DNA of 64,000 nt, taken from a virus. A program made the position numbers and the translations under genes. Positions 8,574-26,531 of the stretch are shown here, piece after piece (positions within the stretch are counted from its first letter, which is position 1; the number at the start of each line of letters is the position of its first letter). Where the stretch lies: the IMG/VR virus record IMGVR_UViG_3300042975_000098; one strand, written 5' to 3'. The notes below the pieces were generated by a model, which did not search any database, was not told the DNA's origin, and was given only the letters and a program-made list of their open reading frames with translations.

Positions 8574-8760
8574 TCGGCTGGCGTCGGCGGCGGCATATCG
8601 GATAGCCGGTGATATTGGTTGATCCGTCGTCGTTGCCGACTGGTATAATGGTCGGGTGAAGGCGCTGGCGGCCGTGTGCGATTCACGGCTTGACGGTGAT
8701 TTGGATGAACCGTGATATTGTGGTACTGTAGTTAACAAGCGGTTCGGGAAGGAGCAGGGC

Positions 8761-8916
8761 ATGGAGTCATCGACTATCATGTTGACGACCGTCGGCATCA
8801 TGCCGTCGCCGTTGTCCTGCCGCGCCCAAGCCGGTTCCAAACTGGATGGCGTGTTCGTGCTCGCAGGTAACGGGTATAGGCATGCGAACCCGTGGGATCA
8901 GGGGCATATCGTGTAA
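8761..8916 (+). CDS. Possible 51-aa small or leader peptide upstream of the tRNA array
   Basis: AAGGAG RBS before ATG; followed by hairpin AAGCCCCGG/CCGGGGCTT; no homology evidence. Confidence 0.3.
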   Translation: MESSTIMLTTVGIMPSPLSCRAQAGSKLDGVFVLAGNGYRHANPWDQGHIV

Positions 8917-9031
8917 GCAGCATTCGTTCGTTGCGATCACGCAAGCCCCGGCCCCGTAAGGAATCCGGGGCTTGTTTAGTATATAATCGAATACGCATGA
9001 TTGGTGGCGGCTCCACGTCGCTGCCGATCGC

Positions 9032-9074
9032 CGACACGCCGGCGGTTGACATGATCCCATGATCGTGGTACGAT
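9032..9074 (+). promoter_or_regulatory. Sigma70-type promoter with upstream CGACACGCCGGCG motif
   Basis: TTGACA-17-TACGAT ahead of the first tRNA. Confidence 0.75.
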
Positions 9075-9105
9075 GGCTCATCGGTGACATACATAACTGA
9101 AGAAA

Positions 9106-9179
9106 CAGCGATTAGGAAAGCTTGGTAATCCGCCTGCCCTGGGAGCAGGAGACCGTGGGTTCGAATCCCGCATCGCTGA
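9106..9179 (+). tRNA. tRNA-Pro(TGG), C33
   Basis: CAGCGAT/ATCGCTG acceptor, CCTGC-ccTGGga-GCAGG, GGTTCGAATCC. Confidence 0.9.
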
Positions 9180-9200
9180 CGCGGCCCGTCATGTGGTCCG

Positions 9201-9242
9201 CGACACGCCGGCGGTTGACAACGCTGGCCGTCGCGGTATGAT
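9201..9242 (+). promoter_or_regulatory. Sigma70-type promoter with CGACACGCCGGCG motif
   Basis: TTGACA-16-TATGAT. Confidence 0.7.
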
Positions 9243-9668
9243 GGGGACATAACTTAACGACGAGGACCGGTTCGCACCGGTGGCGGAGAGCGCGCGACGG
9301 CGACGGTACCGGAATGTGAAAGAACTACCGTGTTTGGTCACGATGACCACCATGCCTCGTCAGGCGCGGTGAGCAGCGACGGAGCGCCTGAACACAGGAT
9401 CGAGCATGGGGAAGACAACGCCCTCAACGATCGCCGACGAAAGCCGACGAAGGATTACATATGTACTCCGGGCACGCGTTGATAACCCATGAACGGGACA
9501 CCAACGTCAATCGTGAAGCAATGACGGCCCGTAGCCATTAAACAAGCTTCTTCAGATGAACACATATGCAAGCATGATGCTGACGCAGGTCGTGCGCGCT
9601 GATCAAGATTCCGAGCAGTCGGATAGAAAAACATGCCGTCATGCCGGCGGACGTTAAACGCCGGTTAT

Positions 9669-9759
9669 TCCGTAGGGTTGACCTTTGTCGGTTGTCATGC
9701 GCGTGACTGTTAATCGAGCGTATCGAGAGACATCGCTGGTTCGATCCCAGCCTACGGAG
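9669..9759 (+). tRNA. Atypical 91-nt tRNA-Asn(GTT)-like gene
   Basis: TCCGTAG/CTACGGA acceptor, ctGTTaa loop, T arm; distorted D and variable regions. Confidence 0.5.
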
Positions 9760-9923
9760 CGTGAGCGGGGTGAGCACGATGGCCTGGGGGTCAGTAAAGA
9801 ATCCCCTCGCCGATTTTCTCACGACCCGGCGATGGATAAAGACAGAGCCATGGCCCCACCCGCAGTCCATCACATGTACACCTGAAGTCGGCTCATAGGA
9901 ATCATGATCGCCGACGATAGCAC

Positions 9924-9999
9924 ACGGGCATAGTTCATCGGTACAGAACATCACTCTGATACAGTGATAAGGGTAGTTCGACTCTACCTGCCCGTACCA
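9924..9999 (+). tRNA. tRNA-Ile(GAT), CCA encoded
   Basis: ACGGGCA/TGCCCGT, TCACT-ctGATac-AGTGA. Confidence 0.88.
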
Positions 10000-10077
10000 A
10001 AGCCGCCGGCGAGCATACGGTTCTCCGCGAGCGCTCGCCAGCGGCCTAGTCCTCATGATGACGTTAAAAGCATGAAC

Positions 10078-10151
10078 GCCTCTGTAGTTTAACCGGATTA
10101 AAATCACTGACTACGAATCACTAGTTCCGGGTTCGACTCCCGGCGGGGGCA
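10078..10151 (+). tRNA. tRNA-Arg(ACG)
   Basis: GCCTCTG/CGGGGGC, ctACGaa loop, T arm. Confidence 0.82.
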
Positions 10152-10263
10152 CGCAATCCAACAAGAATGTTGGCAGAGACCAGAAATAACGTGGTTAGCG
10201 GCAGACGACGAGGATCGGTTCTTCACGGACTATGGAGTGTTCGATTCCTCAGAGTCTGCCAAT

Positions 10264-10336
10264 GGCTGTGAAGCTCTACGGTTTGAGCACCTTCCCGTCG
10301 AGAAGGATGAAGCGGGTTCGACTCCCGGCATAGTCG
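10264..10336 (+). tRNA. tRNA-Asp(GTC), C33
   Basis: GGCTGTG/CATAGTC, CCTTC-ccGTCga-GAAGG. Confidence 0.85.
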
Positions 10337-10339
10337 CTT

Positions 10340-10451
10340 GTATCCGGCATCTATACTTCAGGAATGGCTCCTAGCCATTCCATGATGCCCGGTGAGAAAC
10401 ACATGGGGACGTGAAAACAGCACGAGAACATGCACGCCTCACCGTCTGTTT
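10340..10451 (+). ncRNA. Unclassified pseudoknotted structured RNA, copy 1
   Basis: Four stems covary with copy 2 (12413-12523); loop AAACAG complementary to 3' CTGTTT. Confidence 0.8.
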
Positions 10452-10538
10452 ACTTTACGGCGGTGATGTTACGACCAATGAGGCGGGCGAAAACTCATAA
10501 AGCATCTCACATGATGTCCGTTAAGCATCATTTCTTAT

Positions 10539-10609
10539 TCCCCTGTAGTTCAACGGCAGAACGAATGACTGTTAATCATTTAATGAAAGTTCGATTCTTT
10601 CTAGGGGAG
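10539..10609 (+). tRNA. tRNA-Asn(GTT)
   Basis: TCCCCTG/TAGGGGA, AATGA-ctGTTaa-TCATT. Confidence 0.9.
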
Positions 10610-10625
10610 CGTCAGCACACTCCGC

Positions 10626-11018
10626 ATGGAGAACCTGAAATGGGTCACTGGCAGCACGTACGGTTCAAAATGGAACCATTCCGCGCAGCAGGAAGCAATC
10701 GCGCACGCCACCGCCCGGATCGGCGTGACCACGAAACAGGTAAACCCAAAGAACACCTCGCAATCATGCTCACGATGCGGCGCCAGAATCACGCATGACA
10801 CGAGCAAGAGAACAATCCACTGCCCCGCATGCGACCTCACCATGGACAGGGATTATAACGCAGCAATCAACATCGCACACATCACGAGAACGCACCCCGC
10901 GAGTCATTACGGTAATCGCGGGGGTAAGTGTAGCGGACCGGATGGTCCGCAGCTTATGGGGCTGGGTGCTCCTGTGGGCGCGCTAGGAAGTGGTACTGTT
11001 ATAGGTATTGCAACTTAG
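10626..11018 (+). mobile_element. tnpB: IS200/IS605-family TnpB C-terminal remnant
   Basis: VNPKNTSQSCSRCG...CPACDLTMDRDYNAAINI zinc ribbon plus RuvC-III motif; N-terminal part absent. Confidence 0.85.
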
Positions 11019-11061
11019 TGCGTCACCGTATGATTACATAGTTAACAAGTAATCATCATAT

Positions 11062-11099
11062 TGTGGATTGGCAGAGCGGCAATTGCGGCTGACTGTAGA
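11062..11099 (+). pseudogene. 5' half of a tRNA-Tyr(GTA)
   Basis: GTGGATTGGCAGAGCGGC..TGCGGCTGACTGTAGA matches the 5' half of the Tyr tRNA at 13321; no T arm follows. Confidence 0.65.
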
Positions 11100-11156
11100 T
11101 GCGCTTTTACCACTGCGTGGATTGCTTGTCCTCATGATGACAATAAAAGCATGAAC

Positions 11157-11229
11157 GCCTCTATAGTTCAATTGGTAGAACACCGGACTTTTACTCCGGG
11201 TGTTGTCTGTTCGAGTCAGATTGGGGGCA
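11157..11229 (+). tRNA. tRNA-Lys(TTT)
   Basis: CCGGA-ctTTTac-TCCGG; GCCTCTA/TGGGGGC. Confidence 0.85.
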
Positions 11230-11548
11230 CGCAATCCATGTAGTTTTGGATTACATTCAAGACTTAAGTTCCTTGTTATTAGCGCAAAAATAAAAATACT
11301 ATATTACCGCGCGACATGCCGATTGAACGCAGATTTGCGCTCATGAGAACTTCGTGTTATGATAATAATCATTAACGCGCTGGTTGATAACATAATAGTG
11401 ATTAGTTGTGGGGCTTGTTCATCAGGTGTGTCGGTGATGATTTATACAGGTTCGATTCCTGTTACAAGCACGATGATCCACGGGTTCGGCTTGTTACCTG
11501 ACTCTTGTGTGGGTCACGTCGGGAGTCACTAACCCGACGTTAAACTCT

Positions 11549-11637
11549 GGTTGATTGGCCGAGCATGGTTTATGGCACCTGTCTTGAAAACAGGCGTGGG
11601 GCAACACCCACCGGGGGTTCGAATCCCTCATCAACCG
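11549..11637 (+). tRNA. tRNA-Ser(TGA)
   Basis: CCTGT-ctTGAaa-ACAGG, long variable arm, G73. Confidence 0.92.
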
Positions 11638-11749
11638 CGCAGTTCCAGTAGGCTTTGAGTTAGTCGCGTAGTTAACTACTACCATGGTTAGTTGTGACCG
11701 CTAACGAGCCGAACGCATATAGCAACCGAGCGGGTGCAAGGCCCGCGAT

Positions 11750-11823
11750 GCTTCCATAGCCCAATAGGTAGAGGCAGTAGATTTAGGATCTACTCAGTGC
11801 GGGTTCGACTCCTGCTGGAAGCA
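11750..11823 (+). tRNA. tRNA-Leu(TAG), short variable loop
   Basis: GCTTCCA/TGGAAGC, GTAGA-ttTAGga-TCTAC. Confidence 0.9.
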
Positions 11824-11826
11824 CAA

Positions 11827-11915
11827 TGTCTGAATCGCTTACCAGAAGAGGAGCAGCGGCCTAAAAGCCGTGCCGGCTCATTACCGACCCGTAGGGTGAG
11901 ACTCCCACCAGACAG
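11827..11915 (+). pseudogene. Degenerate class II tRNA-like gene (possibly Leu-derived)
   Basis: TGTCTG/CAGACA ends, GCGGC-ctaaaa-GCCGT 6-nt loop, variable arm, variant T loop TGAGACT; partial second copy after 12068. Confidence 0.4.
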
Positions 11916-11998
11916 GAACCAAGAAGCCATTATGACGATAATGCGCGGATTGGCTCACCCTTGCGTTATGATGATAACGTGTCGACATAACGCAAGGT

Positions 11999-12068
11999 GC
12001 TTCCATAGCCCAACAGGTAGAGGCGGCAAGGAACCGTTACAGTGCTGGTTCGAGTCCAGCTGGAAGCA
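11999..12068 (+). pseudogene. tRNA-Leu pseudogene with deletion in the anticodon arm
   Basis: Paralog of the 11750 and 14213 tRNAs; arm reduced to GGC-AAGGA-ACCGTT. Confidence 0.7.
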
Positions 12069-12213
12069 CGATGTCCGAATAGCTTGTGTCCGGTCATGCC
12101 AGCGGCCTACAAGCCGCTCCGGTTCATTACCGGTATACGTTCGCCGCCGATGACACATGCCGGCGAACTGGTCACCATTCATCTTGTTGCGTGGCCGCGA
12201 GCATGAAACCGCG

Positions 12214-12256
12214 CGACACGCCGGCGATTGAAAACGTTCAACCATTGTGGTATCTT
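12214..12256 (+). promoter_or_regulatory. Sigma70-type promoter with CGACACGCCGGCG motif
   Basis: TTGAAA-17-TATCTT with extended TG. Confidence 0.6.
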
Positions 12257-12340
12257 GTAATCATAGCGCAACGGGAGGAATGAACATGAGCACGGAAGCC
12301 TGAACAGCTGACCGATGAGCATTGATTGAATGCCACGGCA

Positions 12341-12409
12341 GTTCATGATTCCAATAGGGGAATCGTCGGCGGTAACGCTGACGAGCGGGTTCGAGTCCCG
12401 TCATGAACA
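12341..12409 (+). ncRNA. Anticodon-less tRNA-like RNA, copy 1 (69 nt)
   Basis: GTTCATG/CATGAAC acceptor, D-like hairpin, 8-bp stem with GGTAAC loop, canonical T arm. Confidence 0.75.
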
Positions 12410-12412
12410 CTA

Positions 12413-12523
12413 GTATCCGGTGTCCATACATAGAGTCGGCCCCTGGCCGGCTCACGACACCCGGTCGGAAACGCATGGGAGCATGAAAACAGCATGTGAG
12501 CATGAACGCCCGACCGTCTGTTT
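12413..12523 (+). ncRNA. Unclassified pseudoknotted structured RNA, copy 2
   Basis: Compensatory changes relative to 10340-10451. Confidence 0.8.
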
Positions 12524-12574
12524 CTTTTCCCGCGCGACGCAATGCGCGGGTCGCGTCCCCTAGGGGCGCGGGTG

Positions 12575-12643
12575 GTTCATGGTTCCGATAGGGGAATCGC
12601 CGGCGAAAGCACCGGCGAGCGGGTTCGAGTCCCGTCATGAACA
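12575..12643 (+). ncRNA. Anticodon-less tRNA-like RNA, copy 2 (69 nt)
   Basis: Same fold as 12341-12409; central stem capped by a GAAA tetraloop. Confidence 0.75.
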
Positions 12644-12968
12644 CTAGAGTCTGATTCGCTGTGGTGGCGATGAAAAAGCTCAAGACTCGATACGCAAGCA
12701 TGAATGCATAGAGCAATAGTTTCATGTAGCTGCTGGTGCTGCTTAAACAGGTCGCGGTAAACGAATAACCAGATGATTCACGGGCGGCATCCCGTGATGA
12801 CATGAAAAGCATGAGGCCAACCACCGATTGCTTCCTGTTCCCTACGTTAGTGGGGTCCTAGGATAGTGGCAAGATGGTGAAACCCCGTCGAGGAGCATGA
12901 GAGCGGATGACATGATTAATCATTCGCGTGGCAGGAATCTAAAACCCTGCCACCTATGCTCCGTTTAT

Positions 12969-13042
12969 GCTTCTATGGCTCAATTGGTTAAAGCAACTGA
13001 CTCTTAATCAGTGGATTTCGGGTTCGAGTCCCGATGGAAGCA
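12969..13042 (+). tRNA. tRNA-Lys(CTT)
   Basis: ACTGA-ctCTTaa-TCAGT. Confidence 0.92.
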
Positions 13043-13065
13043 CGTATCAACATATGTTGATATGT

Positions 13066-13211
13066 GGGGCGACCAAGGTGGTGAACAGCGGGAGTGGTTA
13101 ACCGTGAGAAACCATAGGTCAGCAGTGGTGGCGGGTTAACCGTCCGTCACTGAGAAAGCCCGTGCGCTGTCAAAGCGATACGGTATCACGGTTCGAATCC
13201 GTGGCGCTCCA
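13066..13211 (+). ncRNA. 146-nt tRNA-Ala-like / mini-tmRNA-like RNA
   Basis: GGGGCG.../CGCTCC-A acceptor with G3.U70 and A73, perfect T arm CACGG-TTCGAAT-CCGTG, large internal insert, no anticodon arm. Confidence 0.6.
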
Positions 13212-13320
13212 CTATGCCGGTGCCCTCCCATGTTCGCACAATACCATGGGTTCACATCGGCGATGCCGTGTGTACGACCGCGAGAGCGGGCGGATGCCGG
13301 GCATGGGTTCATGGATATTT

Positions 13321-13402
13321 GGTGGGTTGGCAGAGTTGGTCAAATGCGGTCGGCTGTAAACCGACTCCTACGGGTACGGGGGTTCGAATCCCTCACCCAC
13401 CA
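13321..13402 (+). tRNA. tRNA-Tyr(GTA)
   Basis: GTCGG-ctGTAaa-CCGAC, variable arm. Confidence 0.92.
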
Positions 13403-13519
13403 CGACGGGTACTGGCAGGCATCTTGGATATCGGGAATAGCCATAAGGTTGATTACCGGAAGCGATTTCCCGAAGCTCCGCCCCTCATCATGACGCCGAT
13501 TTGATCACTCATGATGTAT

Positions 13520-13590
13520 ACGCCTATGGTGCAGTGGCAGCACAAGAGCTTCCAAACCTCCTGATCTGGGTTCGATTCCTGGTGGGCGTG
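13520..13590 (+). tRNA. tRNA-Trp(CCA) (alternative reading Gly(TCC))
   Basis: A1-U72 and G73 favour Trp; anticodon stem has mismatches (AGAGC-ttCCAaa-CCTCC). Confidence 0.6.
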
Positions 13591-13595
13591 CGTAT

Positions 13596-13668
13596 GGTCC
13601 CATAGAGCAACGGTCACCTCGCCTGATTCTCAATCAGGAGATTCCGGGTTCGAATCCCGGTGGGACTA
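13596..13668 (+). tRNA. tRNA-Glu(CTC)
   Basis: CCTGA-ttCTCaa-TCAGG. Confidence 0.92.
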
Positions 13669-13832
13669 CTGGTCATCGGCAATACGCGAACGACGGGATA
13701 CCTGCCGCTCACGGTGCCAACGGGCGTTGGCGATGACATGGTTTGCTGGGAGCCGAAGACCAGCCGGTATGATGCCGCCGCGGAATCACCGCGAGCGACA
13801 CTGTTCATCGAATCTCCGTCAAGGATTCGAAT

Positions 13833-13905
13833 GGCCACGAGGTTCTACGGTTTGAACACCTGCCTGTCGAGCAGGACCAAGCGGGTTCGACTCCCGTCGT
13901 GGTCG
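13833..13905 (+). tRNA. tRNA-Asp(GTC)
   Basis: CCTGC-ctGTCga-GCAGG; paralog of 10264. Confidence 0.88.
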
Positions 13906-14078
13906 CGATCATCGTCATGCCGATGCCAAGCGCCGGCGACAATGAATCGCCGACACCGGTCGGCGATGGCAGTCGGGTTACTCCTCAAACGCGAACGGTT
14001 CGACTCCGAGCGCGAGCGAGTGGAACGCTGCCATCAACGCCGGCGGGCACGCACATGTCGCCATGCCCGTCGGCGTTC

Positions 14079-14152
14079 GCTCGTCTAGCCCAATCGGCAG
14101 AGGCGACGGTTTCAAAAGCCGTACAGTGCGGGTTCGAATCCCGCGGCGAGCA
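14079..14152 (+). tRNA. tRNA-Leu(CAA), short variable loop
   Basis: ACGGT-ttCAAaa-GCCGT. Confidence 0.9.
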
Positions 14153-14212
14153 CGCGCGTTGCCAACGAACGCCATCGATTGTCGAGCGATGGGGCGCCAT
14201 ACAGCGAGTCAA

Positions 14213-14285
14213 GCTTCCGTAGCCCAACGGCAGAGGCAGTGGTCTAAGGAACCACACAGTGCGAGTTCGAGTCTCGCCGGGAGCA
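14213..14285 (+). tRNA. tRNA-Leu(AAG), A34
   Basis: GTGGT-ctAAGga-ACCAC. Confidence 0.88.
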
Positions 14286-14286
14286 C

Positions 14287-14426
14287 GATGACGGAGGTGA
14301 TGATCGGGGTTACTTCTCATGTTAAGGGGGAGGTTCCGGGTTCGAATCCCGGTCGGTTGGCCTTGCGCCTTCCGGTAGCTCAACGGCAGAGCGCCAATAT
14401 TCCCCGGTCGGTTTTTACCCGTCATC
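14287..14426 (+). ncRNA. Circularly permuted tRNA-like / YrlA-like RNA, copy 1
   Basis: Outer stem enclosing, in order, anticodon-like hairpin, T arm, looped acceptor stem and D arm. Confidence 0.8.
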
Positions 14427-14431
14427 AACAT

Positions 14432-14518
14432 GGTCGGTTGTCCGAGTCCGGTTTAAGGAACCTGTCCAGAAAACAGGCATGGCCGACGCCATCGGGGGTT
14501 CGAATCCCTCACCGACCG
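14432..14518 (+). tRNA. tRNA-Ser(AGA), A34, C33
   Basis: CCTGT-ccAGAaa-ACAGG, long variable arm, G73. Confidence 0.88.
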
Positions 14519-14985
14519 CGCGCCGTTGATAATCGCTCATCATGTGGTATAAATAGACGCTGATGTTTTGTACGTAATGGTATAATACATCACGCATTGA
14601 TGCGAGGAATCGTGTCAATACGCAGCGTGATGGTAATGAGCAGCGTAACTCCTCGACTCATGACGGTGAATCAATTATTAGCGTCCCCAGCACGATTAAC
14701 GCTGGTTAGATGCAAGACACCGCCGAGGAGGGATTACTACTTACTACTCACCGCGTCATGCAACCGGGATGGCGGCTCTCGCCTCCTACCCGGTAGAGGG
14801 TACTGCAGTGCACCCAGTGAGGCGCGAGCCTCACGAACACTAAGCGTAGCGCAATTTGTACTATCGCTTAATAACTGTTATACTCATGATGGGCGACGAT
14901 CAACGCCCGATGTTCCCCACGCTAACGGGGGTTCATCACGTTGCAGTTCCAGCTGTATCTATCCCCCACGCAAATGGGGGTGTAC

Positions 14986-15059
14986 GCTTCCATAGCTCAA
15001 TTGGTTAGAGCATCCGCCTCTTAAGCGGAGGGTTGTGGGTCCGAGTCCCACTGGGAGCA
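14986..15059 (+). tRNA. tRNA-Lys(CTT)
   Basis: TCCGC-ctCTTaa-GCGGA; T loop TCCGAGT. Confidence 0.88.
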
Positions 15060-15060
15060 C

Positions 15061-15261
15061 GATGACGGAGGTGATGATCGAGGTTACTTCCATGATAAGG
15101 GGAGGTTCCGGGTTCGAATCTCGGCCGGTCGGCCTTAGCCGGTCGCCGGCTTGCTTGGCGGTTCTCGCTTCGCGGTTCGAATCCCGGTCGGTTGGCCTTG
15201 CGCCTTCCGGTAGCTCAATGGTTAGAGCGCCCTAACCCTCGATCGGTTTTTACCCGTCATC
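15061..15261 (+). ncRNA. Circularly permuted tRNA-like / YrlA-like RNA, copy 2, with internal duplication
   Basis: Same ends as copy 1 with compensatory change in the outer stem (GATCGAGG/CCTCGATC); two T-arm motifs. Confidence 0.75.
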
Positions 15262-15266
15262 AACAC

Positions 15267-15355
15267 GGTCGGTTGTCCGAGTCCGGTTTAAGGAGCCTGC
15301 TTCGAATACAGGTGTGGCCGCAAGACCACCGGGGGTTCGAATCCCTCACCGACCG
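15267..15355 (+). tRNA. tRNA-Ser(CGA)
   Basis: CCTGC-ttCGAat-ACAGG; paralog of 14432. Confidence 0.88.
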
Positions 15356-15405
15356 CTAGCGGTGCGCCATCGATCGATGCCCGCGCCGCCGATATCGCCG
15401 TCAAC

Positions 15406-15479
15406 GGGGGTTTAGCTCAGTCGGTTAGAGCAAACGACTCATAATCGTTCGGTCCAGGGTTCAAGCCCCTGAATCCCCA
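15406..15479 (+). tRNA. tRNA-Met/Ile2(CAT)
   Basis: AACGA-ctCATaa-TCGTT; elongator-type. Confidence 0.88.
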
Positions 15480-15496
15480 CACGTGGTATGTATCTT

Positions 15497-15570
15497 GTCG
15501 ACGTAGCTCAGATGGCCAGAGCGCCGAGTCGAAGCCTCGGAGGTCGTTCGTTCGATGCGAACCGTCGACA
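15497..15570 (+). tRNA. tRNA-Phe(GAA), C33
   Basis: CCGAG-tcGAAgc-CTCGG; GTCGACG/CGTCGAC. Confidence 0.85.
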
Positions 15571-15628
15571 CTGGGGAGCGGTCAGCCGCTCCAGCCCGCG
15601 ATCGGCATCAGTCGAGGGCATTAACCAT

Positions 15629-15711
15629 ATGTCGGCATCAGATTGGTGACTCAAGCGCTCTCCAAAAGCGTCGCCCCTCGGGGCTTGCAGGTTCGAATCC
15701 TGCCCGGCGTG
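15629..15711 (+). tRNA. tRNA-Trp(CCA) with long variable arm
   Basis: GCGCT-ctCCAaa-AGCGT, GCCCC/GGGGC variable stem, weak D arm. Confidence 0.65.
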
Positions 15712-15786
15712 CTCATTCCCCTGTTTGACTGATCGACGGCTCATAGTATGATGATGAGCAACTTGCCAATCAATCAGGGGGGGACA

Positions 15787-16350
15787 ATGAAACCGATCGT
15801 CTGCCATGGCGATATCACCACCATGAACGTGGATGCGATAGTCAACGCAGCCAACAGTGAGCTCGCGCGGGGCCGCGGCGTGTGCGGAGCCATTTTCGCC
15901 GCCGCCGGTGACGACGCCGGGCGATTACAGGACGAGTGCTTCTCGAAAGCGCCCGTACGCCCCGGCGGCGCCGTGCTGACGAAAGCTTACGGTCTGCCCG
16001 CGCGATTCATCATCCACGCGGTCGGCCCGGTGTACGACCCTGCCGACGCCGCCGGCAGCGAGCGGCTTCTCCGCTCAACGTATGATGCCGCGCTGGCGAT
16101 AGCCGACGAGCATCATATGGGCAGCGTCGCGTTCCCGCTGATATCCTCGGGGATCTACGGTTATCCTCATGATGACGCGCTGGCGATAGCGCTCGACGCG
16201 CTGGCAGGTCATCGCAATCGGAATGAACGGCATATGGATGTTTACCTTGTCCTGTTCGATTCCTCGCGCGAAGCCGTCCCATCATGGTGGCGGCGCGCCA
16301 TCGGGAACGTCATCGCCTCCATACTCCAACGGCAGAGAGTGCGGGCCTAA
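15787..16350 (+). CDS. Macro domain protein (YmdB-like ADP-ribose hydrolase)
   Basis: GDIT, DAIVNAAN, GRGVCGAI, IIHAVGP, AFPLISSGIYGYP. Confidence 0.92.
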   Translation: MKPIVCHGDITTMNVDAIVNAANSELARGRGVCGAIFAAAGDDAGRLQDECFSKAPVRPGGAVLTKAYGLPARFIIHAVGPVYDPADAAGSERLLRSTYDAALAIADEHHMGSVAFPLISSGIYGYPHDDALAIALDALAGHRNRNERHMDVYLVLFDSSREAVPSWWRRAIGNVIASILQRQRVRA

Positions 16351-16387
16351 ACCCCGCTGGTTCCCGGTTCGAATCCGGGTGGGGGCA
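16315..16387 (+). tRNA. tRNA-Leu(TAA), C33; overlaps the 3' end of the macro gene
   Basis: GCGGG-ccTAAac-CCCGC; GCCTCCA/TGGGGGC. Confidence 0.82.
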
Positions 16388-16687
16388 CTTCGGTTAGTTC
16401 AATCGTCGCATTCGCGTCGCGATCCCAATCACTCGCTTCGCGGAGGTCGGCGCCAAGTCCTGACGGCGATTGGGAGCCATCAGGGATGAGGTAGAACGCC
16501 GGGAGCATATCCCGGAGATGTCGTGCGAATCGACGCCAATCACGTATGCGGTCGCGGCCATCGACGTCGCAGGCGCATCATTCGACTCCATGCGCTGGGC
16601 ATGGGACGGCCGCACAGGCCGTCAGCGGGTTCGACTCCCGGTCGGGTGACGATGGCGGGAGCGGGCGGTCGCTCCCGCCGTCATTTC

Positions 16688-16761
16688 GCGGACATAGCTT
16701 AGCTGGTTAAAGCGCGACCTTGCCAAGGTCGAGACCGCGGGTTCGAGTCCCGCTGTCCGCT
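16688..16761 (+). tRNA. tRNA-Gly(GCC)
   Basis: CGACC-ttGCCaa-GGTCG. Confidence 0.95.
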
Positions 16762-16817
16762 CGATGACGCACGCCGGAGACAATCATCGCCGGCACCGTC
16801 AGCATCAGTGTACGTTC

Positions 16818-16891
16818 GCTCACGTGGCGCAGCCGGTCAGCGCGCCTGCATCACACGCAGGAGGTCCGTGGTTCGATCCCACGCGCGAGCA
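16818..16891 (+). tRNA. tRNA-Val(CAC)
   Basis: CCTGC-atCACac-GCAGG. Confidence 0.9.
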
Positions 16892-16931
16892 CGACCACGG
16901 TCGATGACGATCATCGCCGACCGTTGGCAAT

Positions 16932-17002
16932 GCGGGTATGGCTTAATGGCAGAGCATCGTCCTTCCAAGTCGATCATGCGGGTTCGATTCCCGCTGCCCG
17001 CT
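16932..17002 (+). tRNA. tRNA-Gly(TCC)
   Basis: ctTCCaa loop, GCGGGTA/TGCCCGC, U73. Confidence 0.9.
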
Positions 17003-17149
17003 CGATGATCACCCGGAACCTGCGCTGCGGCCGCGTTCCGTTAGCGGCATGGGAACCTGGTGATCCATACCATGCACTGCGTCCCCGTTGGGCGGCAAGC
17101 GCCGCCCGCGCAGCATACCGACCGGAGCTCAGGGACGGCTCCGGTCACT

Positions 17150-17220
17150 GCGGATGTGGTTCAACGGCAGAACTGCGGCTTCCCAAGTCGCCGGCGCGGG
17201 TTCGACCCCCGCCATCCGCT
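17150..17220 (+). tRNA. tRNA-Gly(CCC)
   Basis: GCGGC-ttCCCaa-GTCGC. Confidence 0.92.
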
Positions 17221-17232
17221 CGCATCGGTCAT

Positions 17233-17305
17233 GCTCCCGTGGCCCAGTGGTCAGGGCGCCTCGCTTACACCGAGGACATCATGGGTTCGAATCCCATCGG
17301 GAGCA
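17233..17305 (+). tRNA. tRNA-Val(TAC)
   Basis: CCTCG-ctTACac-CGAGG. Confidence 0.92.
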
Positions 17306-17316
17306 CGATCGCTCAC

Positions 17317-17392
17317 GGGGATGTGGCTCAACAGGTAGGGCATCTCGCCAGCAACGAGAAGGCAGCGGGTTCGACCCCCGCCATCTCCACCA
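17317..17392 (+). tRNA. tRNA-Ala(AGC), A34, C33, CCA encoded
   Basis: G3.U70, TCTCG-ccAGCaa-CGAGA. Confidence 0.88.
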
Positions 17393-17510
17393 CGCCGACG
17401 ACCAGCCGTCGATCGAAACCGGTTCGATGGCGTTCGGCGTCATGTATGCGCGCCCGCGGGAATCACACCGTCCGCGCGCGCCCGCGATCGGCTACGGAAC
17501 CCGATCACAT

Positions 17511-17583
17511 GCCCGCATAGCTCAACCGGCAGAGCGGCGCTCTCGTAAAGCGCAGGTACGCGGTTCGACACCGCGTGCGGGCT
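17511..17583 (+). tRNA. tRNA-Thr(CGT)
   Basis: GCGCT-ctCGTaa-AGCGC. Confidence 0.92.
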
Positions 17584-17651
17584 CGATGGCATCGATGACA
17601 CGATGTCGTTCGCCATCGGCGGTCGGCTCCACGCCGGCCATCGATGGCATC

Positions 17652-17724
17652 GTCCGCGTGGCGCAGTTGGCAGCGCGCCTGCATGACCCGCAGGTGGTCC
17701 GTGGTTCGATTCCACGCGCGGACA
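17652..17724 (+). tRNA. tRNA-Val(GAC)
   Basis: CCTGC-atGACcc-GCAGG. Confidence 0.88.
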
Positions 17725-17760
17725 CTGCTCGGCGATGATTTCGCAGGTCGCCGAGAATAT

Positions 17761-17833
17761 CGTGGCGTAGCTCAGTTGGCAGAGCACCCGGCTCATAACC
17801 GGGAGGGGGATGGTTCGATCCCATCCGCCACGA
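17761..17833 (+). tRNA. tRNA-Met(CAT)
   Basis: CCCGG-ctCATaa-CCGGG; paired C1-G72. Confidence 0.88.
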
Positions 17834-17869
17834 CGACGCTCGCGGTCTAATCGTCGACCGTCAACACAC

Positions 17870-17942
17870 TGTCCGATGGTGAAACTGGCATCACGCCCGG
17901 CCCTGAACCGGGAGACTGCAGGTTCGAATCCTGCTCGGACAA
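17870..17942 (+). tRNA. tRNA-Gln(CTG), C33
   Basis: CCCGG-ccCTGaa-CCGGG; U1-A72. Confidence 0.88.
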
Positions 17943-17962
17943 CGACCTGGTATAATGCCAGC

Positions 17963-18391
17963 ATGGCTAACAAGAAGACGACGTTATCGTTGATCGCCGC
18001 GCTGGCGGCGGTCATCATCCTGTATTTCGTACCGCAGGGCGCGTCATACCTCACCTCGCACATAGGATTCCTTCGACCGGTGCAGACCGGTGTGGAATCC
18101 ACGAGCGCGTTGGCTCTGCGCAACGGCGTCATGGTCGGCAAGGCCACGCTGACGACGGACTCGCCCGGCAGCGGCAAGACGGTGACCGTGAACATGGAAC
18201 TGTACCGTAACGGCGGCAAGGTGCGCGAATGCTCGCAGGCGTCGTACCCGTTGTCATCATCGCGAACGAACGTCATCGTCAACTGCGGTATGGCCGACGG
18301 CGTGAAGGCCGGTCGCAGTGGCGGGTACACGGTCAAGGTCATCAAGGCCCGCGTGATATCGATGCCATCCGGTGACAGTAGCAATGATTAA
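17963..18391 (+). CDS. Hypothetical exported protein (leaderless)
   Basis: TATAAT-N6-ATG; N-terminal hydrophobic signal or anchor; two Cys. Confidence 0.75.
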   Translation: MANKKTTLSLIAALAAVIILYFVPQGASYLTSHIGFLRPVQTGVESTSALALRNGVMVGKATLTTDSPGSGKTVTVNMELYRNGGKVRECSQASYPLSSSRTNVIVNCGMADGVKAGRSGGYTVKVIKARVISMPSGDSSND

Positions 18392-18432
18392 CGACTTGCC
18401 GGCGCCGGTCATCGGCCGACGCCGGTTCCCTT

Positions 18433-18505
18433 GGGGATGTAGCTCAACTGGTAGAGCGCCTCGTCCGCAACGAGGAGGCAGTGGGTTCGACCCCCATCAT
18501 CTCCA
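18433..18505 (+). tRNA. tRNA-Ala(CGC), C33
   Basis: G3.U70, CCTCG-tcCGCaa-CGAGG. Confidence 0.88.
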
Positions 18506-18580
18506 CTCCGCCCGCATCCGAATGTTGATGCTGGCGGCGCGCCGCCAGCGAGGGCGCGAACGATGTGATATGATGTACTT

Positions 18581-18669
18581 GGATGGGATTGCAACTCGGT
18601 GAATGCTAATCGGTTTGCTAAACCGGTGCGGCCGCAAGACCGCCGTGGGTTCGACTCCCACCCCATCCG
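18581..18669 (+). tRNA. tRNA-Ser(GCT)
   Basis: ttGCTaa loop, long variable arm, G73. Confidence 0.88.
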
Positions 18670-18761
18670 CGGGCGCCTAACGCACAGAAGCGCCGTAACA
18701 ACCCGAGTGCATAGTCAGCAGCCGCGGGCGATGATGATCATCGCCGGCGATTGGTGGCACC

Positions 18762-18836
18762 GCCTTCGTAGCTCAACGGATTAGAGCACCGGTCCTCGGA
18801 ACCGGGTTGTAGTGGGTTCGACACCCACCGGGGGCA
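18762..18836 (+). tRNA. tRNA-Arg(TCG), C33
   Basis: CCGGT-ccTCGga-ACCGG. Confidence 0.87.
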
Positions 18837-18907
18837 CGTCGCGGGGCGGCCGACTGGTCGCACCCGATTGGCCGCGGTCGTCCGTTCGCTGGCGATCGCT
18901 GCCCATG

Positions 18908-18978
18908 TGGTCCATAGCTCAATGGCAGAGCGACGGCTTGTGGCGCCGTATATCCGGGTTCGATCCCCGGTGGTCCAA
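18908..18978 (+). tRNA. tRNA-His(GTG)
   Basis: ACGGC-ttGTGgc-GCCGT; G-1 present at 18907 but position 73 is A. Confidence 0.85.
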
Positions 18979-18980
18979 CT

Positions 18981-19054
18981 CGCGGGGTAGAGCAGTTCGG
19001 TAGCTCGCCGGCCTCATAAGCCGGAGGTCACGGGTTCGAATCCCGTCCCCGCCA
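18981..19054 (+). tRNA. Initiator-like tRNA-fMet(CAT)
   Basis: CGCGGGG start, unpaired C1, GAGC/GCTC D stem; anticodon stem GGC/GCC instead of GGG/CCC. Confidence 0.88.
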
Positions 19055-19085
19055 CGATAAGCCGGTTCGTCCGGCGATTCAACAT

Positions 19086-19156
19086 GCTGGGATAGCCAAG
19101 CGGCAGGGCGACGGTCTGCAAAACCGTACAGGCGGGTTCGACTCCCGTTCCCAGTT
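19086..19156 (+). tRNA. tRNA-Cys(GCA)
   Basis: ACGGT-ctGCAaa-ACCGT, U73. Confidence 0.92.
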
Positions 19157-19195
19157 CGGATGCGACCGTCGGCATCGTCGGCGATCACGTTCATT

Positions 19196-19266
19196 TGCCC
19201 ATTCGTCCATTGGCAGGACGGGAGCCTTTGGTGCTCCAGAAGGTGGTTCGATCCCATCATGGGCAG
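19196..19266 (+). tRNA. tRNA-Gln(TTG)
   Basis: GGAGC-ctTTGgt-GCTCC. Confidence 0.92.
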
Positions 19267-19267
19267 C

Positions 19268-19340
19268 GCGCCGGTAGCTCACTGGATAGAGCGCCCGTCT
19301 ACGGAGCGGGAGGTCGTGGGTTCGAATCCCACTCGGCGCA
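19268..19340 (+). tRNA. tRNA-Arg(ACG)
   Basis: CCCGT-ctACGga-GCGGG. Confidence 0.93.
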
Positions 19341-19485
19341 CTCGGGTTCATTTCGGAGCCACAAGTACTGGGTCGCCGAATGGCGGTAACGAGGGTCGGC
19401 ATCGGTTGCCGGCCGTTCGCTAGGATTCCTTTGTCGTGGTGAACCTGACCGCCCCGTCGAACCGATCGGCGGGGTCTTTCCTTAT

Positions 19486-19561
19486 GGTCCGGCGGTGTGC
19501 GGGGATTCGCGCATACGCGACCTTCAATCGCGTGGTTCGGGTTCGATTCCCGATCGGACTA
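19486..19561 (+). tRNA. tRNA-Glu(TTC), C33, atypical D arm
   Basis: CGCGA-ccTTCaa-TCGCG; GGTCCGG/TCGGACT. Confidence 0.75.
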
Positions 19562-19588
19562 CGATTTTCCATACGATATTAACCGCTC

Positions 19589-20152
19589 ATGACCGATGAG
19601 CAAGCAAACAGCGATGACGTTGACGATGCCGATGGCCTCTGGCCGTCGACCGCTGGCGACGGCGTTCCACCGGCGGTCACGGAGTCCATAGCCAAACACA
19701 AGGCGCTGGCGGTTACACGCCGGGGGCGGATGCGGTTCAGAAGATGCATGAGCACGTTGAAATGGAATCGCTGGTTCAGCACGCGCGACATCACACGCGC
19801 CTATGTCCGCAATGATGGTCGAACCCTGGTGTTCCTCAGCGTGATGTACGCCGGCGTCGGTCTCACGTCGCTCGTATGCGGGCACGGCGTCATCAGAATC
19901 GCGTTCAGCGTGGCATTCCTCCTTGGCGCTCCGGTGGCGTTCCTGCTGGGGCGGGGCTCGTTGGCGGCCGCGTGCGATACGGCCGATGACGCCACGCTCA
20001 TGGACATGGCGCTGAAGCTCGCATGGGCCACCACATGGGAGCGTCTTCGCATGCTCCGCGTCACCGGCGCCGGCGATGACGGGAGCGAACACGCCGCCGA
20101 TGGCATCAAGCCGCCGGCGGACGACGGGCGGCGGCGAGAACCGTTATCATGA
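19589..20152 (+). CDS. Hypothetical membrane protein
   Basis: Two hydrophobic segments; CGATATT-N8-ATG upstream. Confidence 0.65.
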   Translation: MTDEQANSDDVDDADGLWPSTAGDGVPPAVTESIAKHKALAVTRRGRMRFRRCMSTLKWNRWFSTRDITRAYVRNDGRTLVFLSVMYAGVGLTSLVCGHGVIRIAFSVAFLLGAPVAFLLGRGSLAAACDTADDATLMDMALKLAWATTWERLRMLRVTGAGDDGSEHAADGIKPPADDGRRREPLS

Positions 20153-20246
20153 TGCGATCGGCGGCGACACGCCGGCGGAATCGATGTCGATATTCGTGGT
20201 ATACTTCTGTATGGTCGCGGGAACGTGATCATTGATAATCGAACAG

Positions 20247-20320
20247 GCCCGTGTAGCTCATCTGGATAGAGCGTTTTCCCCCTAAGAAAAAGGCAGTCGG
20301 TTCGAGTCCGACCGCGGGCA
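20247..20320 (+). tRNA. tRNA-Arg(CCT), C33
   Basis: TTTTC-ccCCTaa-GAAAA. Confidence 0.87.
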
Positions 20321-20391
20321 CGATTACGGTGGCGACACCGTGATCAACGTCGGCGCGGGTCCGCCCTTCATGGGCACCCCGTCGGCACCTC

Positions 20392-20465
20392 GCCTCCGTG
20401 GCCTAACTGGATAAGGTTGTGAGCCTCTACCTCACCGATTGTGGGTTCGAGTCCCACCGGGGGCA
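20392..20465 (+). tRNA. tRNA-Arg(TCT), C33
   Basis: GTGAG-ccTCTac-CTCAC. Confidence 0.87.
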
Positions 20466-20505
20466 CAGTGATTTGCGGATCATCGTCATTCAGGAGACCC
20501 GCAAC

Positions 20506-20576
20506 GCCCGATTAGCTCAATGGGAGAGCAACCGCCCTGTAAGCGGTGGACGTCGGTTCGATACCGGCATCGGGCT
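20506..20576 (+). tRNA. tRNA-Thr(TGT), C33
   Basis: ACCGC-ccTGTaa-GCGGT. Confidence 0.87.
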
Positions 20577-20781
20577 CGTGGACGGCGTGAACGTGATGCG
20601 CCCCGTGGTACCCGGGGAGCGCGATCGCGATCGCCGTCAACATGGGGGTTGACAGGCCGGATGCGTTGTCGAACGTTACTTCTTGCAACGAAAAAACACG
20701 TTCGACGGGTTTTTCACCGGCACGACCCCAACGCATAAGCCATCGATCGGCAGCGAGAGCCACCGATCGACGGCCGTCCCT

Positions 20782-20820
20782 GACCCGCGCGGACCTCATC
20801 GTCCGCGCGGGTCTTTTTTA
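20782..20820 (+). terminator. Intrinsic terminator closing the tRNA array
   Basis: GACCCGCGCGGAC/GTCCGCGCGGGTC 13-bp stem followed by a T tract. Confidence 0.9.
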
Positions 20821-21029
20821 TTGCACTGGCGACTGGAACCCACCGGTACCGTTCGATGGAGGCGAGTTTCCAAGTATGAGCCGACTGGAAGCGTTCCATA
20901 CGAACTCGCTCGGCGCTTGGGGGTCCGCTATGGGCGTGACCGGTCGGCGATCGCCCGCGGCCCATGTATCATGGAACCTACGGGTTCCCTATATTCACAG
21001 TACGAGCAACGGGCCAGGGAGGATTCGAC

Positions 21030-21476
21030 ATGAGCGACATCACGATACGAGGCAATGAGGTGGAGATCGATCTGAGGGGAATGAGGAGCATCGTCGCGCT
21101 GCGTCGACGCGTGACGTTCAGGCGATCGGATATCGCCAGCGTTACGCCGCCGACCGCGACCGACAGGCGGCGGTTCCGCCGGCTGGTCGACGAACGACAC
21201 GTCAGGCTCGGCGGCGCCAAAGTACCCGGTCATTACATGGGCGGCACATTCGTTAACGTCAGCGCGCCCGCCGGTCGGCGTTTCGAGTTCTGGGACGTGG
21301 ATGACATGGACCGAACGGTGGTCATACGACTCAGGAACGGCCACTACTCGACCGTGTACGTCACCGTCGAAAGGATCGCCAGCGCGGGCGACGAGACCGG
21401 TTCCGAGAGTATGGTCCGCGTCGGCAGGAACGGTAGCGGGATGGACAAGGCGATTGCGATTCTGTTAGATCAGTAA
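21030..21476 (+). CDS. Hypothetical protein (bacterial PH-like fold suspected)
   Basis: GGAGG RBS before ATG 21030; coding-like GC3 pattern. Confidence 0.6.
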   Translation: MSDITIRGNEVEIDLRGMRSIVALRRRVTFRRSDIASVTPPTATDRRRFRRLVDERHVRLGGAKVPGHYMGGTFVNVSAPAGRRFEFWDVDDMDRTVVIRLRNGHYSTVYVTVERIASAGDETGSESMVRVGRNGSGMDKAIAILLDQ

Positions 21477-21496
21477 GGAGCGATCGGAGGCGTGAC

Positions 21497-23256: not shown

Positions 23257-24296
23257 ATGAACAACACAAGGATATGGATAATCGTCAACGGGGTGTACGA
23301 TGATGACGGGTATTATCCCGGCGACCCGCTGCTCGATGCGACCGGCAGGACCATATGGTTCGATGATGGCGATGCCGCCGGCGACGTCGCCAAACGACTA
23401 TCGGCGCGGTCACGCGAGGCGTTCAGGCGCACCGCAGGTGATTGGGTTCAAAGCGCTTCTATGGTGATTCACCAATCACATACCAGGCGATGGAGGTCGG
23501 GCGGCTGGCGGCGGACCCCAGCGGCGACGAAATCGTCGACGAGATCACCGGTATCAATGCCGACCGATGGCCATACGGCATGGACATTGACGCGCATGAG
23601 CATGTGCTCATTGAAGAGGCGCGCCGACGATTCCTCGACTCACCCGAGCATGACGCCATCATCAAACAGTTCCGCGATTACTGCGCGCCAAGCGTGAAGG
23701 CATTGCGCGTCGATTACCCGGATATCAAGGATGACGATTTCACCGTCATGTTCCCCAACGATCATGACGTCACCATCGAGTATGACCCGTTGCGATCCGG
23801 CTATTCCATCTGCGTCGCCACCGTGGCCAACCCGGCGGGCGGCTCGCCGGCGATCACGGACACCCAGTCGACGGACCCAATGGATTACGTCGACGAGGCC
23901 GACATGTGCGCCGAGGGCCGGCATGACTGGACGGACGATGACTCGCCAAGCGCCTACGCCGACTGGAGGGCGAGACGCGCGGCCAGGACGCTGGGCGTGA
24001 CCATCGGCGAGACCATACCGATCAGTGCCGGTGCCGGCTTCCACATGGCCGGCACCGTTTACGTCGATGATGGCGGCGCGATCAAGTTCGACGCATTCGA
24101 TGATGAAGAGGCCGGTGGATGGGAGGCTGGCGTCATGTTCCGCGACGGTGACCGTTGGTGCGTGGTGTTCCATGATTTCGCCGCCGCTCCGGGCACAGGC
24201 GGAACCGCCGATGAGGCGATAGCCGCGTTCCTGCTGCGCAATGGCGACAGCAAGGCGCTGGGCCCCGCGCGAGATTCACACAGGTGCGACAGTTGA
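23257..24296 (+). pseudogene. Hypothetical gene apparently split by a frameshift near 23445
   Basis: Leaderless start at 23257; acidic coding frame continues in ORF 23442-24296. Confidence 0.5.
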
Positions 24297-24799
24297 GCGG
24301 CGTCGATGATGACGACGATCGCCCGCGAACCGGCGTGTACTCGTGGGATGAGTCGTTCATGCTCATGGCGCTGGCGATCGCCGGCAGGTCGAAGGACCCT
24401 CGCACGCAGGTCGGCGCGGTGTTCGTGAACGCCGATCACCGCGTCATGAGCGTCGGCTATAACGGCGCGCCGCGCGGACTGCCTGACGCGGACATGCACT
24501 GGCGGCGTCACGCCGACGATCCCGCGTTGACGAAGTACCCGTATGTCATTCATGCGGAGCGTAACGCGATTCTGAACTACCGGGGACTATTGTCTGATTT
24601 CCTCGGTTCGACCCTGTACGTGACCTTGTTCCCCTGCCATGAGTGCGCGAAGTCGCTGGCGCAGATCGGCGTCGGCCGCGTGGCGTGGCTGAACGGTCCG
24701 CGACACGCCGATGACGCCGCGGTGGCGATGGATCTTCTGAAGTGGGCCGGGACGGCCGTCGACGCCGCCGCCATCGATATTCCCCCTGCATCACGATGA
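24284..24799 (+). CDS. dCMP deaminase (ComEB/CDA family)
   Basis: WDESFM.MA...RSKDP.TQVGA, GYNG, HAERNAI, TLFPCHECAK. Confidence 0.92.
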   Translation: MRQLSGVDDDDDRPRTGVYSWDESFMLMALAIAGRSKDPRTQVGAVFVNADHRVMSVGYNGAPRGLPDADMHWRRHADDPALTKYPYVIHAERNAILNYRGLLSDFLGSTLYVTLFPCHECAKSLAQIGVGRVAWLNGPRHADDAAVAMDLLKWAGTAVDAAAIDIPPASR

Positions 24800-26495: not shown

Positions 26496-26531
26496 CGATA
26501 TTGCCCACGCGATCCACGGGAGGGCAATCAC

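Follow-up and report, generated by a model that had tools for sequence, protein, structure and literature searches.

The 64-kb stretch of IMG/VR virus record IMGVR_UViG_3300042975_000098 analyzed here (the window, to which all coordinates refer unless a relative is named) is part of a 346-kb JGI metagenome contig (Ga0527070_018), on which it was placed via its clamp-loader gene. It carries a long tRNA array in which three genes other than tRNA-Arg(ACG), namely tRNA-Leu(AAG), tRNA-Ser(AGA), and tRNA-Ala(AGC), have an adenosine at the wobble position of the anticodon (A34). ARAGORN predicted 45 co-oriented tRNA genes at 9106..20577 on the (+) strand, i.e., 3.9 genes per kb over 11.5 kb, as well as a tmRNA gene at 35017, and 41 of the 45 tRNA calls reached the gathering score of the Rfam tRNA model (29 bits). 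Non-coding tRNA-like elements are interspersed among the tRNA genes. Known tRNA array units, or L-arrays, have been defined as groups of 20 or more tRNA genes with a density no lower than 2 per kb (PMC4758250); the array described here exceeds both values, and the gene content of the window (see below) adds the mobile-element context that belongs to an L-array.

Six ARAGORN calls have A34: two tRNA-Arg(ACG), the three genes named above, and a putative "tRNA-Pro(AGG)." Leu(AAG) (14213..14286, (+) strand; A34 at 14246; Rfam score of 53.5 bits) is 74 nt long and has a short, class I-like variable region, the loop CTAAGGA with U33 and G37, and the discriminator base A73. Ser(AGA) (14432..14519, (+) strand; A34 at 14468; 45.4 bits) has the loop CCAGAAA with C33 and carries the marks of a bacterial class II tRNA-Ser, including a length of 88 nt, a long variable arm with a 5-bp stem, and G73. 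Ala(AGC) (17317..17392, (+) strand; A34 at 17350; 58.3 bits) has the loop CCAGCAA, again with C33, the tRNA-Ala identity marks G3:U70 and A73, and an encoded CCA end. All three fold into standard cloverleaves, each with a 5-bp anticodon stem and a 7-nt loop, and thus appear to be intact accessory tRNA genes. Two of them have paralogs within the array: Ser(CGA) (15267..15356, (+) strand) for Ser(AGA) and Ala(CGC) (18433..18506, (+) strand) for Ala(AGC). The Arg(ACG) genes lie on the same strand at 10078..10152 (copy 1), where the loop CTACGAA is that of a canonical substrate of the A34 deaminase TadA, and at 19268..19341 (copy 2), where the loop CTACGGA differs from the Leu(AAG) loop at position 35 only.

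An earlier note on this DNA had listed the same three A34 tRNAs besides Arg(ACG) and had found no partners with G34. Both points were borne out by ARAGORN and by a permissive Rfam scan of positions 8600-21500, neither of which found Leu(GAG), Ser(GGA), or Ala(GGC) in the array. That note did not include the sixth call, "Pro(AGG)" (11999..12069, (+) strand; 37.9 bits), which has a Leu-type body, the acceptor stem of Leu(TAG), the loop CAAGGAA with A33, and a weak 3-bp D stem, and which passes the Rfam model under permissive filters only. Its role as a decoder is doubtful. The loop resembles that of Leu(AAG) minus U33, and the gene could encode a mimic of a tRNA or else, provided that LeuRS charges it and it is used, a reader that inserts leucine at proline codons.

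The same note described the three genes as a eukaryote-like A34 decoding set, which overstates the case. In eukaryotes, A34 replaces G34 in eight boxes, while Val(GAC), Ile(GAT), and Gly(GCC) all keep G34 in the window, and threonine is served in the array by CGT and TGT only, i.e., by neither an A34 nor a G34 tRNA. The array is accessory, and the absence of a G34 partner means little because the host supplies tRNAs to it. No GAA reader was found in the window array, indicating that the array is not self-sufficient.

Next, we asked how old these genes are. Two syntenic relatives were found via clamp-loader homologs, and all share the order gyrA, YdjM, sigma factor, ligA, clamp loader, and array. 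In the close relative (L048/L049), the clamp loader is 98% identical to that of the window, and in the distant one (L052, extended as L064), it is 52% identical. The distant relative has a GC content of 0.465 (versus 65% in the window), a GC content at third codon positions (GC3) of 0.53, and a 51-gene tRNA array. The close relative contains Leu(AAG), with the loop TTAAGGA, and an Ala(AGC) identical to the window copy, and lacks both Ser(AGA) and Ser(GGA). A second "Ala(AGC)" called in it (L048, 15192-15264) was rejected as an ARAGORN miscall, since it is homologous to a sealed-loop tRNA mimic of the window described below. The distant array contains Leu(AAG) (loop CTAAGGA), Ala(AGC) (loop TTAGCAT), two Thr(AGT), Arg(ACG), and Ser(GGA); Leu(GAG), Ala(GGC), and Thr(GGT) were not found in it. 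Between the window and the distant relative, the Leu(AAG) orthologs are identical at 49 of 74 positions, both partners having changed in 8 of 22 stem pairs and no pair being broken, and the Ala(AGC) orthologs are identical at 58 of 73 positions and keep G3:U70, a pair that is invariant in all five Ala tRNAs of the family. The flanking spacers cannot be aligned. Because orthologs persist in the distant relative with compensated stems and an invariant G3:U70, Leu(AAG) and Ala(AGC) are old, selectively maintained traits of the family that were kept across a shift of 20 GC points.

In none of the three arrays do A34 and G34 tRNAs occur together in a box: a given box contains one or the other, and the A34 tRNA thus takes the place of the reader of pyrimidine-ending codons. 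Non-Arg A34 tRNAs are rare in bacteria. They make up 3 of the 45 tRNAs of the window array, compared with 2 of 210 tRNAs in unrelated loci (Fisher's P = 0.04), and 9 of 129 when the three family arrays are pooled (P = 0.003), although the baseline of 210 was sampled for convenience and the counts of the three arrays, which are mutually related, are not independent. Clamp-loader relatives from IMG/VR, all of them ≤29% identical, were used as baseline only.

Ser(AGA) has a different history. It matches the neighboring Ser(CGA) exactly in the acceptor, D, and T arms and differs from it in the anticodon and variable arms, while its anticodon arm is that of Ser(TGA) in the close relative (loop CCTGAAA, with C33) save for the change of T34 to A34. 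In addition, Ser(AGA) sits in a duplicated unit, and the close relative has a single unit at that place. These features point to a young, lineage-specific paralog that would have arisen within the duplicated unit from a C33-bearing anticodon arm of the Ser(UGA) type by one U34-to-A34 change. None of its stems is broken, and pairing in the anticodon stem is better than in Ser(CGA). Instead of Ser(AGA), the distant relative carries Ser(GGA), and it also carries Thr(AGU); we take Ser(GGA), as seen there, to be the older family state of the pyrimidine reader in the Ser box. Position 34 can change quickly elsewhere in the family, and a recent wobble-base flip is seen in the array slot occupied by Ala(CGC) in the window, which holds Ala(TGC) in the close relative (L048, 16691-16764).

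The synthetases for leucine, serine, and alanine ignore the anticodon (PMC11028032). A34 is found mainly in these families, where a wobble-base change in a duplicated gene would leave charging intact. The body of Leu(AAG) departs from the long variable arm of bacterial class II tRNA-Leu, although A73 is present. All four Leu tRNAs of the window array (11750-11824, 14079-14153, 14213-14286, and 16315-16388) are 74-75 nt long with a short variable region, whereas the distant relative has five Leu tRNAs of 83-85 nt besides its Leu(AAG) of 75 nt. A 26-nt pattern taken from the 5′ half of the Leu gene matched 10 further loci (L028-L037), and all 10 are tRNAs of 75-78 nt with Leu anticodons (TAG, CAA, or CAG) located in phage contigs, cyanobacterial arrays, a Saprospiraceae metagenome-assembled genome, and Catenulispora chromosomes. 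This looks like a widespread lineage of short-arm tRNA-Leu.

To predict the state of A34 in each tRNA, we compared the anticodon loops (positions 32-38) with the published consensus for TadA substrates, which is YUACGAA for the E. coli and K. pneumoniae enzymes and YUAMGRA for that of S. pyogenes (PMC11472039). Arg(ACG) copy 1 (CUACGAA) fits both the strict and the expanded consensus, while copy 2 (CUACGGA) and Leu(AAG) (CUAAGGA) fit the expanded one only. In comparison, neither consensus accommodates Ser(AGA) (CCAGAAA) or Ala(AGC) (CCAGCAA), both of which fail at positions 33, 35, and 36. Leu(AAG) is edited by S. pyogenes TadA and not by E. coli TadA (PMC11472039; also PMC13249217), and the statement in the earlier note that bacterial TadA normally edits only tRNA-Arg(ACG) is, therefore, out of date for Lactobacillales. 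When a common tRNA body with the Arg2 loop was used in E. coli, inosine was found in ANG anticodons only (PMC11066159). In Oenococcus oeni, inosine (I34) is reported for the Arg and Leu A34 tRNAs and unmodified A34 for those of Thr and Ser (PMC8072771). Because of the loop fits and these data from E. coli and O. oeni, the same split is predicted here: Leu(AAG) would likely be deaminated to IAG if the host TadA tolerates A35, as in Streptococcus and Oenococcus, and would otherwise read mainly CUU, while Ser(AGA) and Ala(AGC) would most likely keep A34. Unmodified AGC reads GCU and GCC at 52:48, and unmodified AGA prefers UCU by 10:1 or more (PMC11066159), from which Ala(AGC) is predicted to read GCU and GCC about equally and Ser(AGA) to read mostly UCU, a codon that accounts for 2% of Ser codons here, and so to make a marginal contribution. 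Taken together, these are most simply viewed as real accessory A34 tRNAs of which Leu is possibly edited to inosine and Ser and Ala are probably used unmodified, an explanation that we favor with moderate confidence. The alternatives in the earlier note, that the tRNAs work unmodified or rely on a broadened deaminase, probably hold as a split between the tRNAs, in agreement with O. oeni, and not as one answer for all three.

The anticodon loops share a further feature, C33 in place of the near-universal U33. It occurs in 12 of the 45 tRNAs of the window array (Pro TGG, Asp GTC, Ser AGA, Phe GAA, Leu TAA, Ala AGC, Gln CTG, Ala CGC, Arg TCG, CCT, and TCT, and Thr TGT), in 13 of 33 in the close relative, and in 6 of 51 in the distant one; among tRNAs of unrelated loci, the count is 5 of 210 (P = 7e-7 for the window array).

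Several observations weigh against the explanation that we favor. The genes of the window have a GC3 of ~0.85, and U-ending codons are rare (TCT, 2% of Ser; GCT, 5% of Ala; and CTT, 12% of Leu), while C-ending codons are common (TCC, 26%; GCC, 43%; and CTC, 37%), so unmodified A34 would be poorly matched to demand, which favors I34. In two of the three arrays, the Ala box consists of AGC and CGC, and GCA is covered only if A34 is edited. C33 could impair decoding by Ser(AGA) and Ala(AGC), and the short variable region of Leu(AAG), in contrast to the long arm of tRNA-Leu in bacteria, makes its charging with leucine presumptive. Finally, contigs from a metatranscriptome run, which contained 5% of the sequence words, touch only the spacers 14662-14920 and 15078-15297 and none of the A34 tRNAs. 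These fish-gut contigs match the spacers at ~97% identity and may reflect transcription of a relative's spacer RNAs or DNA carry-over.

The earlier note proposed a search for TadA variants, and within the 64-kb window this search yielded a dCMP-type deaminase only and no TadA. Specifically, a six-frame search for the motif [HC]AE...PCxxC found one site, in an open reading frame (ORF) at 24284..24799 on the (+) strand that encodes a CDA-fold zinc deaminase of 171 aa, and Pfam scans of ~50 ORFs of the window revealed no other RNA-modifying enzyme. This protein matches human dCMP deaminase (2W4L) over its full length at an E-value of 1e-36, versus ~1e-5 for TadA, scores 63-71 bits with ComEB versus 31-33 bits with TadA (TadA cut-off, 150), and contains a GYNG.P.G motif. 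An ortholog with 55% identity likewise lies a few kb downstream of the array in the distant relative (L064, 19535-20023), despite the difference of 20 GC points between the elements. By sequence, this syntenic deaminase is an enzyme of nucleotide metabolism and not of the TadA type.

It is nevertheless the sole candidate seen in the window and the distant relative for an enzyme that would convert every A34 of the array to I34. Under this alternative, a deaminase of relaxed specificity, from the host or the element, would give IAG with UAG, IGC with CGC, IGA with UGA and CGA, and ICG with UCG. The absence of G34 partners from every A34-bearing box of all three arrays, the great excess of C-ending over U-ending codons, the coverage of all four Ala codons by AGC and CGC only with I34, the retention of A34 through a shift from 46% to 65% GC, and the synteny of a CDA-fold deaminase in two divergent elements all favor it. 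The loops argue otherwise, since those of Ser and Ala contain C33, unlike any known TadA substrate, and the Ala orthologs differ at three of seven loop positions (CCAGCAA versus TTAGCAT). So do the dCMP-type signature of the syntenic enzyme, the lack of a second HAE...PCxxC motif in the window, the Ser and Thr A34 tRNAs that stay unmodified in O. oeni (PMC8072771), and the fact that the arrays are not self-sufficient (no GAA reader in the window and neither Ser(AGA) nor Ser(GGA) in the close relative). We consider full editing of the array unlikely and, slightly more so, its extension to the whole family or its host, in which the array would be an inosine-based bacterial set (IAG, IGC, IGA or IGU, and ICG with U34 and C34 partners). 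If true, this would amount to an independent counterpart of the eukaryotic ADAT expansion, carried by a mobile element.

There are two other accounts. In one, A34, like C33, would have been selected for resistance to anticodon nucleases or tRNA-modifying toxins aimed at G34 isoacceptors, with the array replacing damaged host tRNAs. The strong enrichment of C33 suggests selection on the anticodon-loop sequence, as proposed for escape from anticodon nucleases (PMC10264068), and tRNA arrays of mobile genetic elements have been proposed to be anti-defense devices with escape mutations in the anticodon loop (PMC10264068 and PMC12803027). A macro-domain gene (15748-16350) lies inside the array, an Apyc1/RNase Z-like gene follows the array of the distant relative, and a toxin that ADP-ribosylates the anticodon loop of tRNA-Thr(GGU) is known (PMC13617354). 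Yet, our analysis identified no nuclease or toxin directed specifically at Leu(GAG), Ser(GGA), or Ala(GGC), and this account explains why A34 could be favored but not how C-ending codons are read; we regard it as improbable as a full explanation, although the idea of C33 as nuclease escape is compatible with the explanation that we favor. In the other account, which we find the least probable, the A34 genes would be decaying pseudogenes or else tolerated products of relaxed selection, of marginal function within a redundant array. Ser(AGA) would suit this, being young, missing from the close relative (which also lacks Ser(GGA)), predicted to serve a 2% codon, and marked by C33, and so would the degenerate tRNA-like elements of the array ("Pro(AGG)," an "Asn" at 14289, and the sealed-loop mimic at 16574-16652) and an array in Anabaena, 3 of whose 26 genes are pseudogenes (PMC8421152). 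However, the cloverleaves of Leu(AAG) and Ala(AGC) stay perfect through 21-34% divergence, with compensatory pairs and invariant identity marks; A34 survived strong GC pressure next to spacers that cannot be aligned; and Ser(AGA) itself has intact stems throughout, with a better-paired anticodon stem than Ser(CGA).

The array contains further elements of note. Related elements of ~100-145 nt lie 5′ of both Ser(AGA) and Ser(CGA) (14289-14431 and 15122-15266), with one copy in the close relative; part of this element was called "Asn(GTT)" by ARAGORN and not by the Rfam tRNA model, and the element has a weak YrlA-like match of 28.6 bits, below threshold. The mimic at 16574-16652 is a tRNA-shaped RNA whose 7-bp "anticodon" stem is sealed by a 5-nt loop (fold z = -3.6). 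The macro-domain gene overlaps tRNA-Leu(TAA) by 36 nt, is retained in the close relative (L048, 14361-14900), and is skipped in one variant from a food metagenome (joint from 15729 to 16169); a homolog search returned one close match, on a 1.3-kb contig. Four other ORFs within the array (12261-12824, 14597-14995, 17963-18391, and 19589-20152) had no Pfam match and were treated as non-coding. Just after the array of the distant relative, an MBL-fold gene (L064, 14707-15255) matches the Anti-Pycsar Apyc1 (Pfam) and RNase Z models with scores of ~62 bits, which fall short of the respective cut-offs, and is a candidate for either tRNA 3′ processing or anti-defense.

Proteins encoded in the window include GyrA, NAD-dependent ligase, the clamp loader, a sigma factor, FtsH, a PF03090 Rep protein, PIF1 and RecG helicases, DNA methylases, a PhoH-PIN protein, and a TadE-like pilin. 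With its gyrase, NAD ligase, clamp loader, Rep, and conjugation genes, the carrier of the array appears to be an uncultured giant plasmid-like element. Near-identical DNA is present in many bioreactor-sludge runs, bird, pig-gut, and food metagenomes contain relatives with ~92-97% identity, and the same A34 genes recur in other samples (L022). Among curated phages and plasmids, megablast with the array gave only trivial 43-nt tRNA-Gly matches, and tblastn with the Rep and clamp-loader proteins gave distant matches only. Metagenome contigs scanned with a neighboring 558-aa protein gave no match, and those scanned with a Ser D-arm pattern gave unrelated Ser tRNAs only; no array was found with the clamp-loader homologs P0125, P0127, and P0135. 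All named homologs of the 558-aa protein belong to Bifidobacterium, which hints weakly at the host, and other giant elements carry homologs of this protein without an adjoining array. Elsewhere in the window, a tandem direct duplication of ~4.5 kb (25146-29700 and 29672-34230; sampled 300-nt blocks 100% identical at a spacing of 4525-4529) contains YspA/SLOG-like, Fic-like, and thioredoxin-like genes. The FtsH gene (36348-38150) has a GC3 of 0.50, versus 0.72-0.92 in every other gene examined, and looks recently acquired from a source of lower GC content.

The closest known parallel is the expanded A34 repertoire (Arg, Leu, Thr, and Ser) of O. oeni and other Leuconostocaceae (Rafels-Ybern et al. 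2019, as summarized in PMC8072771 and PMC8007984). As described there, several non-Arg A34 tRNAs stand in for G34 isoacceptors, and the measured split between I34 (Arg and Leu) and A34 (Thr and Ser) is the one expected here from the loops. The O. oeni set, by these accounts, is chromosomal, essential, and hosted by a low-GC Firmicute, whereas that of the window is supernumerary, belongs to a high-GC mobile element, includes Ala(AGC), and has C33 in two cases and a short-arm Leu body. The Leu(AAG) of Lactobacillales that TadA converts to Leu(IAG) (PMC13249217 and PMC11472039) shares with ours the anticodon, a loop fitting YUAMGRA, and the exclusion of Leu(GAG); the streptococcal tRNA is of class II and 89 nt long, in contrast to the 74 nt and short variable region seen here, and an E. 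coli-type TadA, unlike that of S. pyogenes, does not edit Leu(AAG) in vitro.

As in other tRNA array units or L-arrays (PMC4758250, PMC8421152, and PMC12803027), dozens of co-oriented tRNAs at more than 2 per kb lie on a mobile element, redundant with those of the host and mixed with pseudo-tRNAs, and a Leu body with the short arm is shared with arrays of cyanobacteria and phages. By contrast, A34 tRNAs are unmentioned in the passages of these sources searched, with neither "A34" nor "inosine" occurring in the searched text of PMC8421152, while the plasmid-like family retains Leu(AAG) and Ala(AGC), encodes a tmRNA, and shows C33 at a high rate. The ANN anticodons missing from bacteria are missing from phage tRNA sets as well and have been termed "prohibited" (PMC8007984). 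No report of a bacterial Ala(AGC) was found in the literature searched. In the eukaryotic I34 set produced by ADAT2/3 (Thr, Ala, Pro, Ser, Leu, Ile, Val, and Arg), A34 without G34 likewise occurs in Leu, Ser, Ala, and Arg, as well as in Thr in the distant relative, and Gly likewise keeps G34. Here, however, Val and Ile keep G34, Pro is doubtful, the set is accessory, and no ADAT-like enzyme was found in the 64-kb window.

A34 repertoires and tRNA arrays of mobile genetic elements were already known, and what is new is the old family status of Leu(AAG) and Ala(AGC) and the youth of Ser(AGA). Because O. oeni already shows a mixed A34/I34 repertoire, we view the finding as moderate rather than striking. 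It indicates that a family of mobile elements keeps Leu(AAG) and Ala(AGC) across deep divergence while switching between G34 and A34 in the Ser and Thr boxes. The family may thus serve as a compact natural system for studying how unmodified A34 works in vivo, how often the specificity of TadA widens, and whether changes at position 33 and the wobble base act as nuclease evasion.

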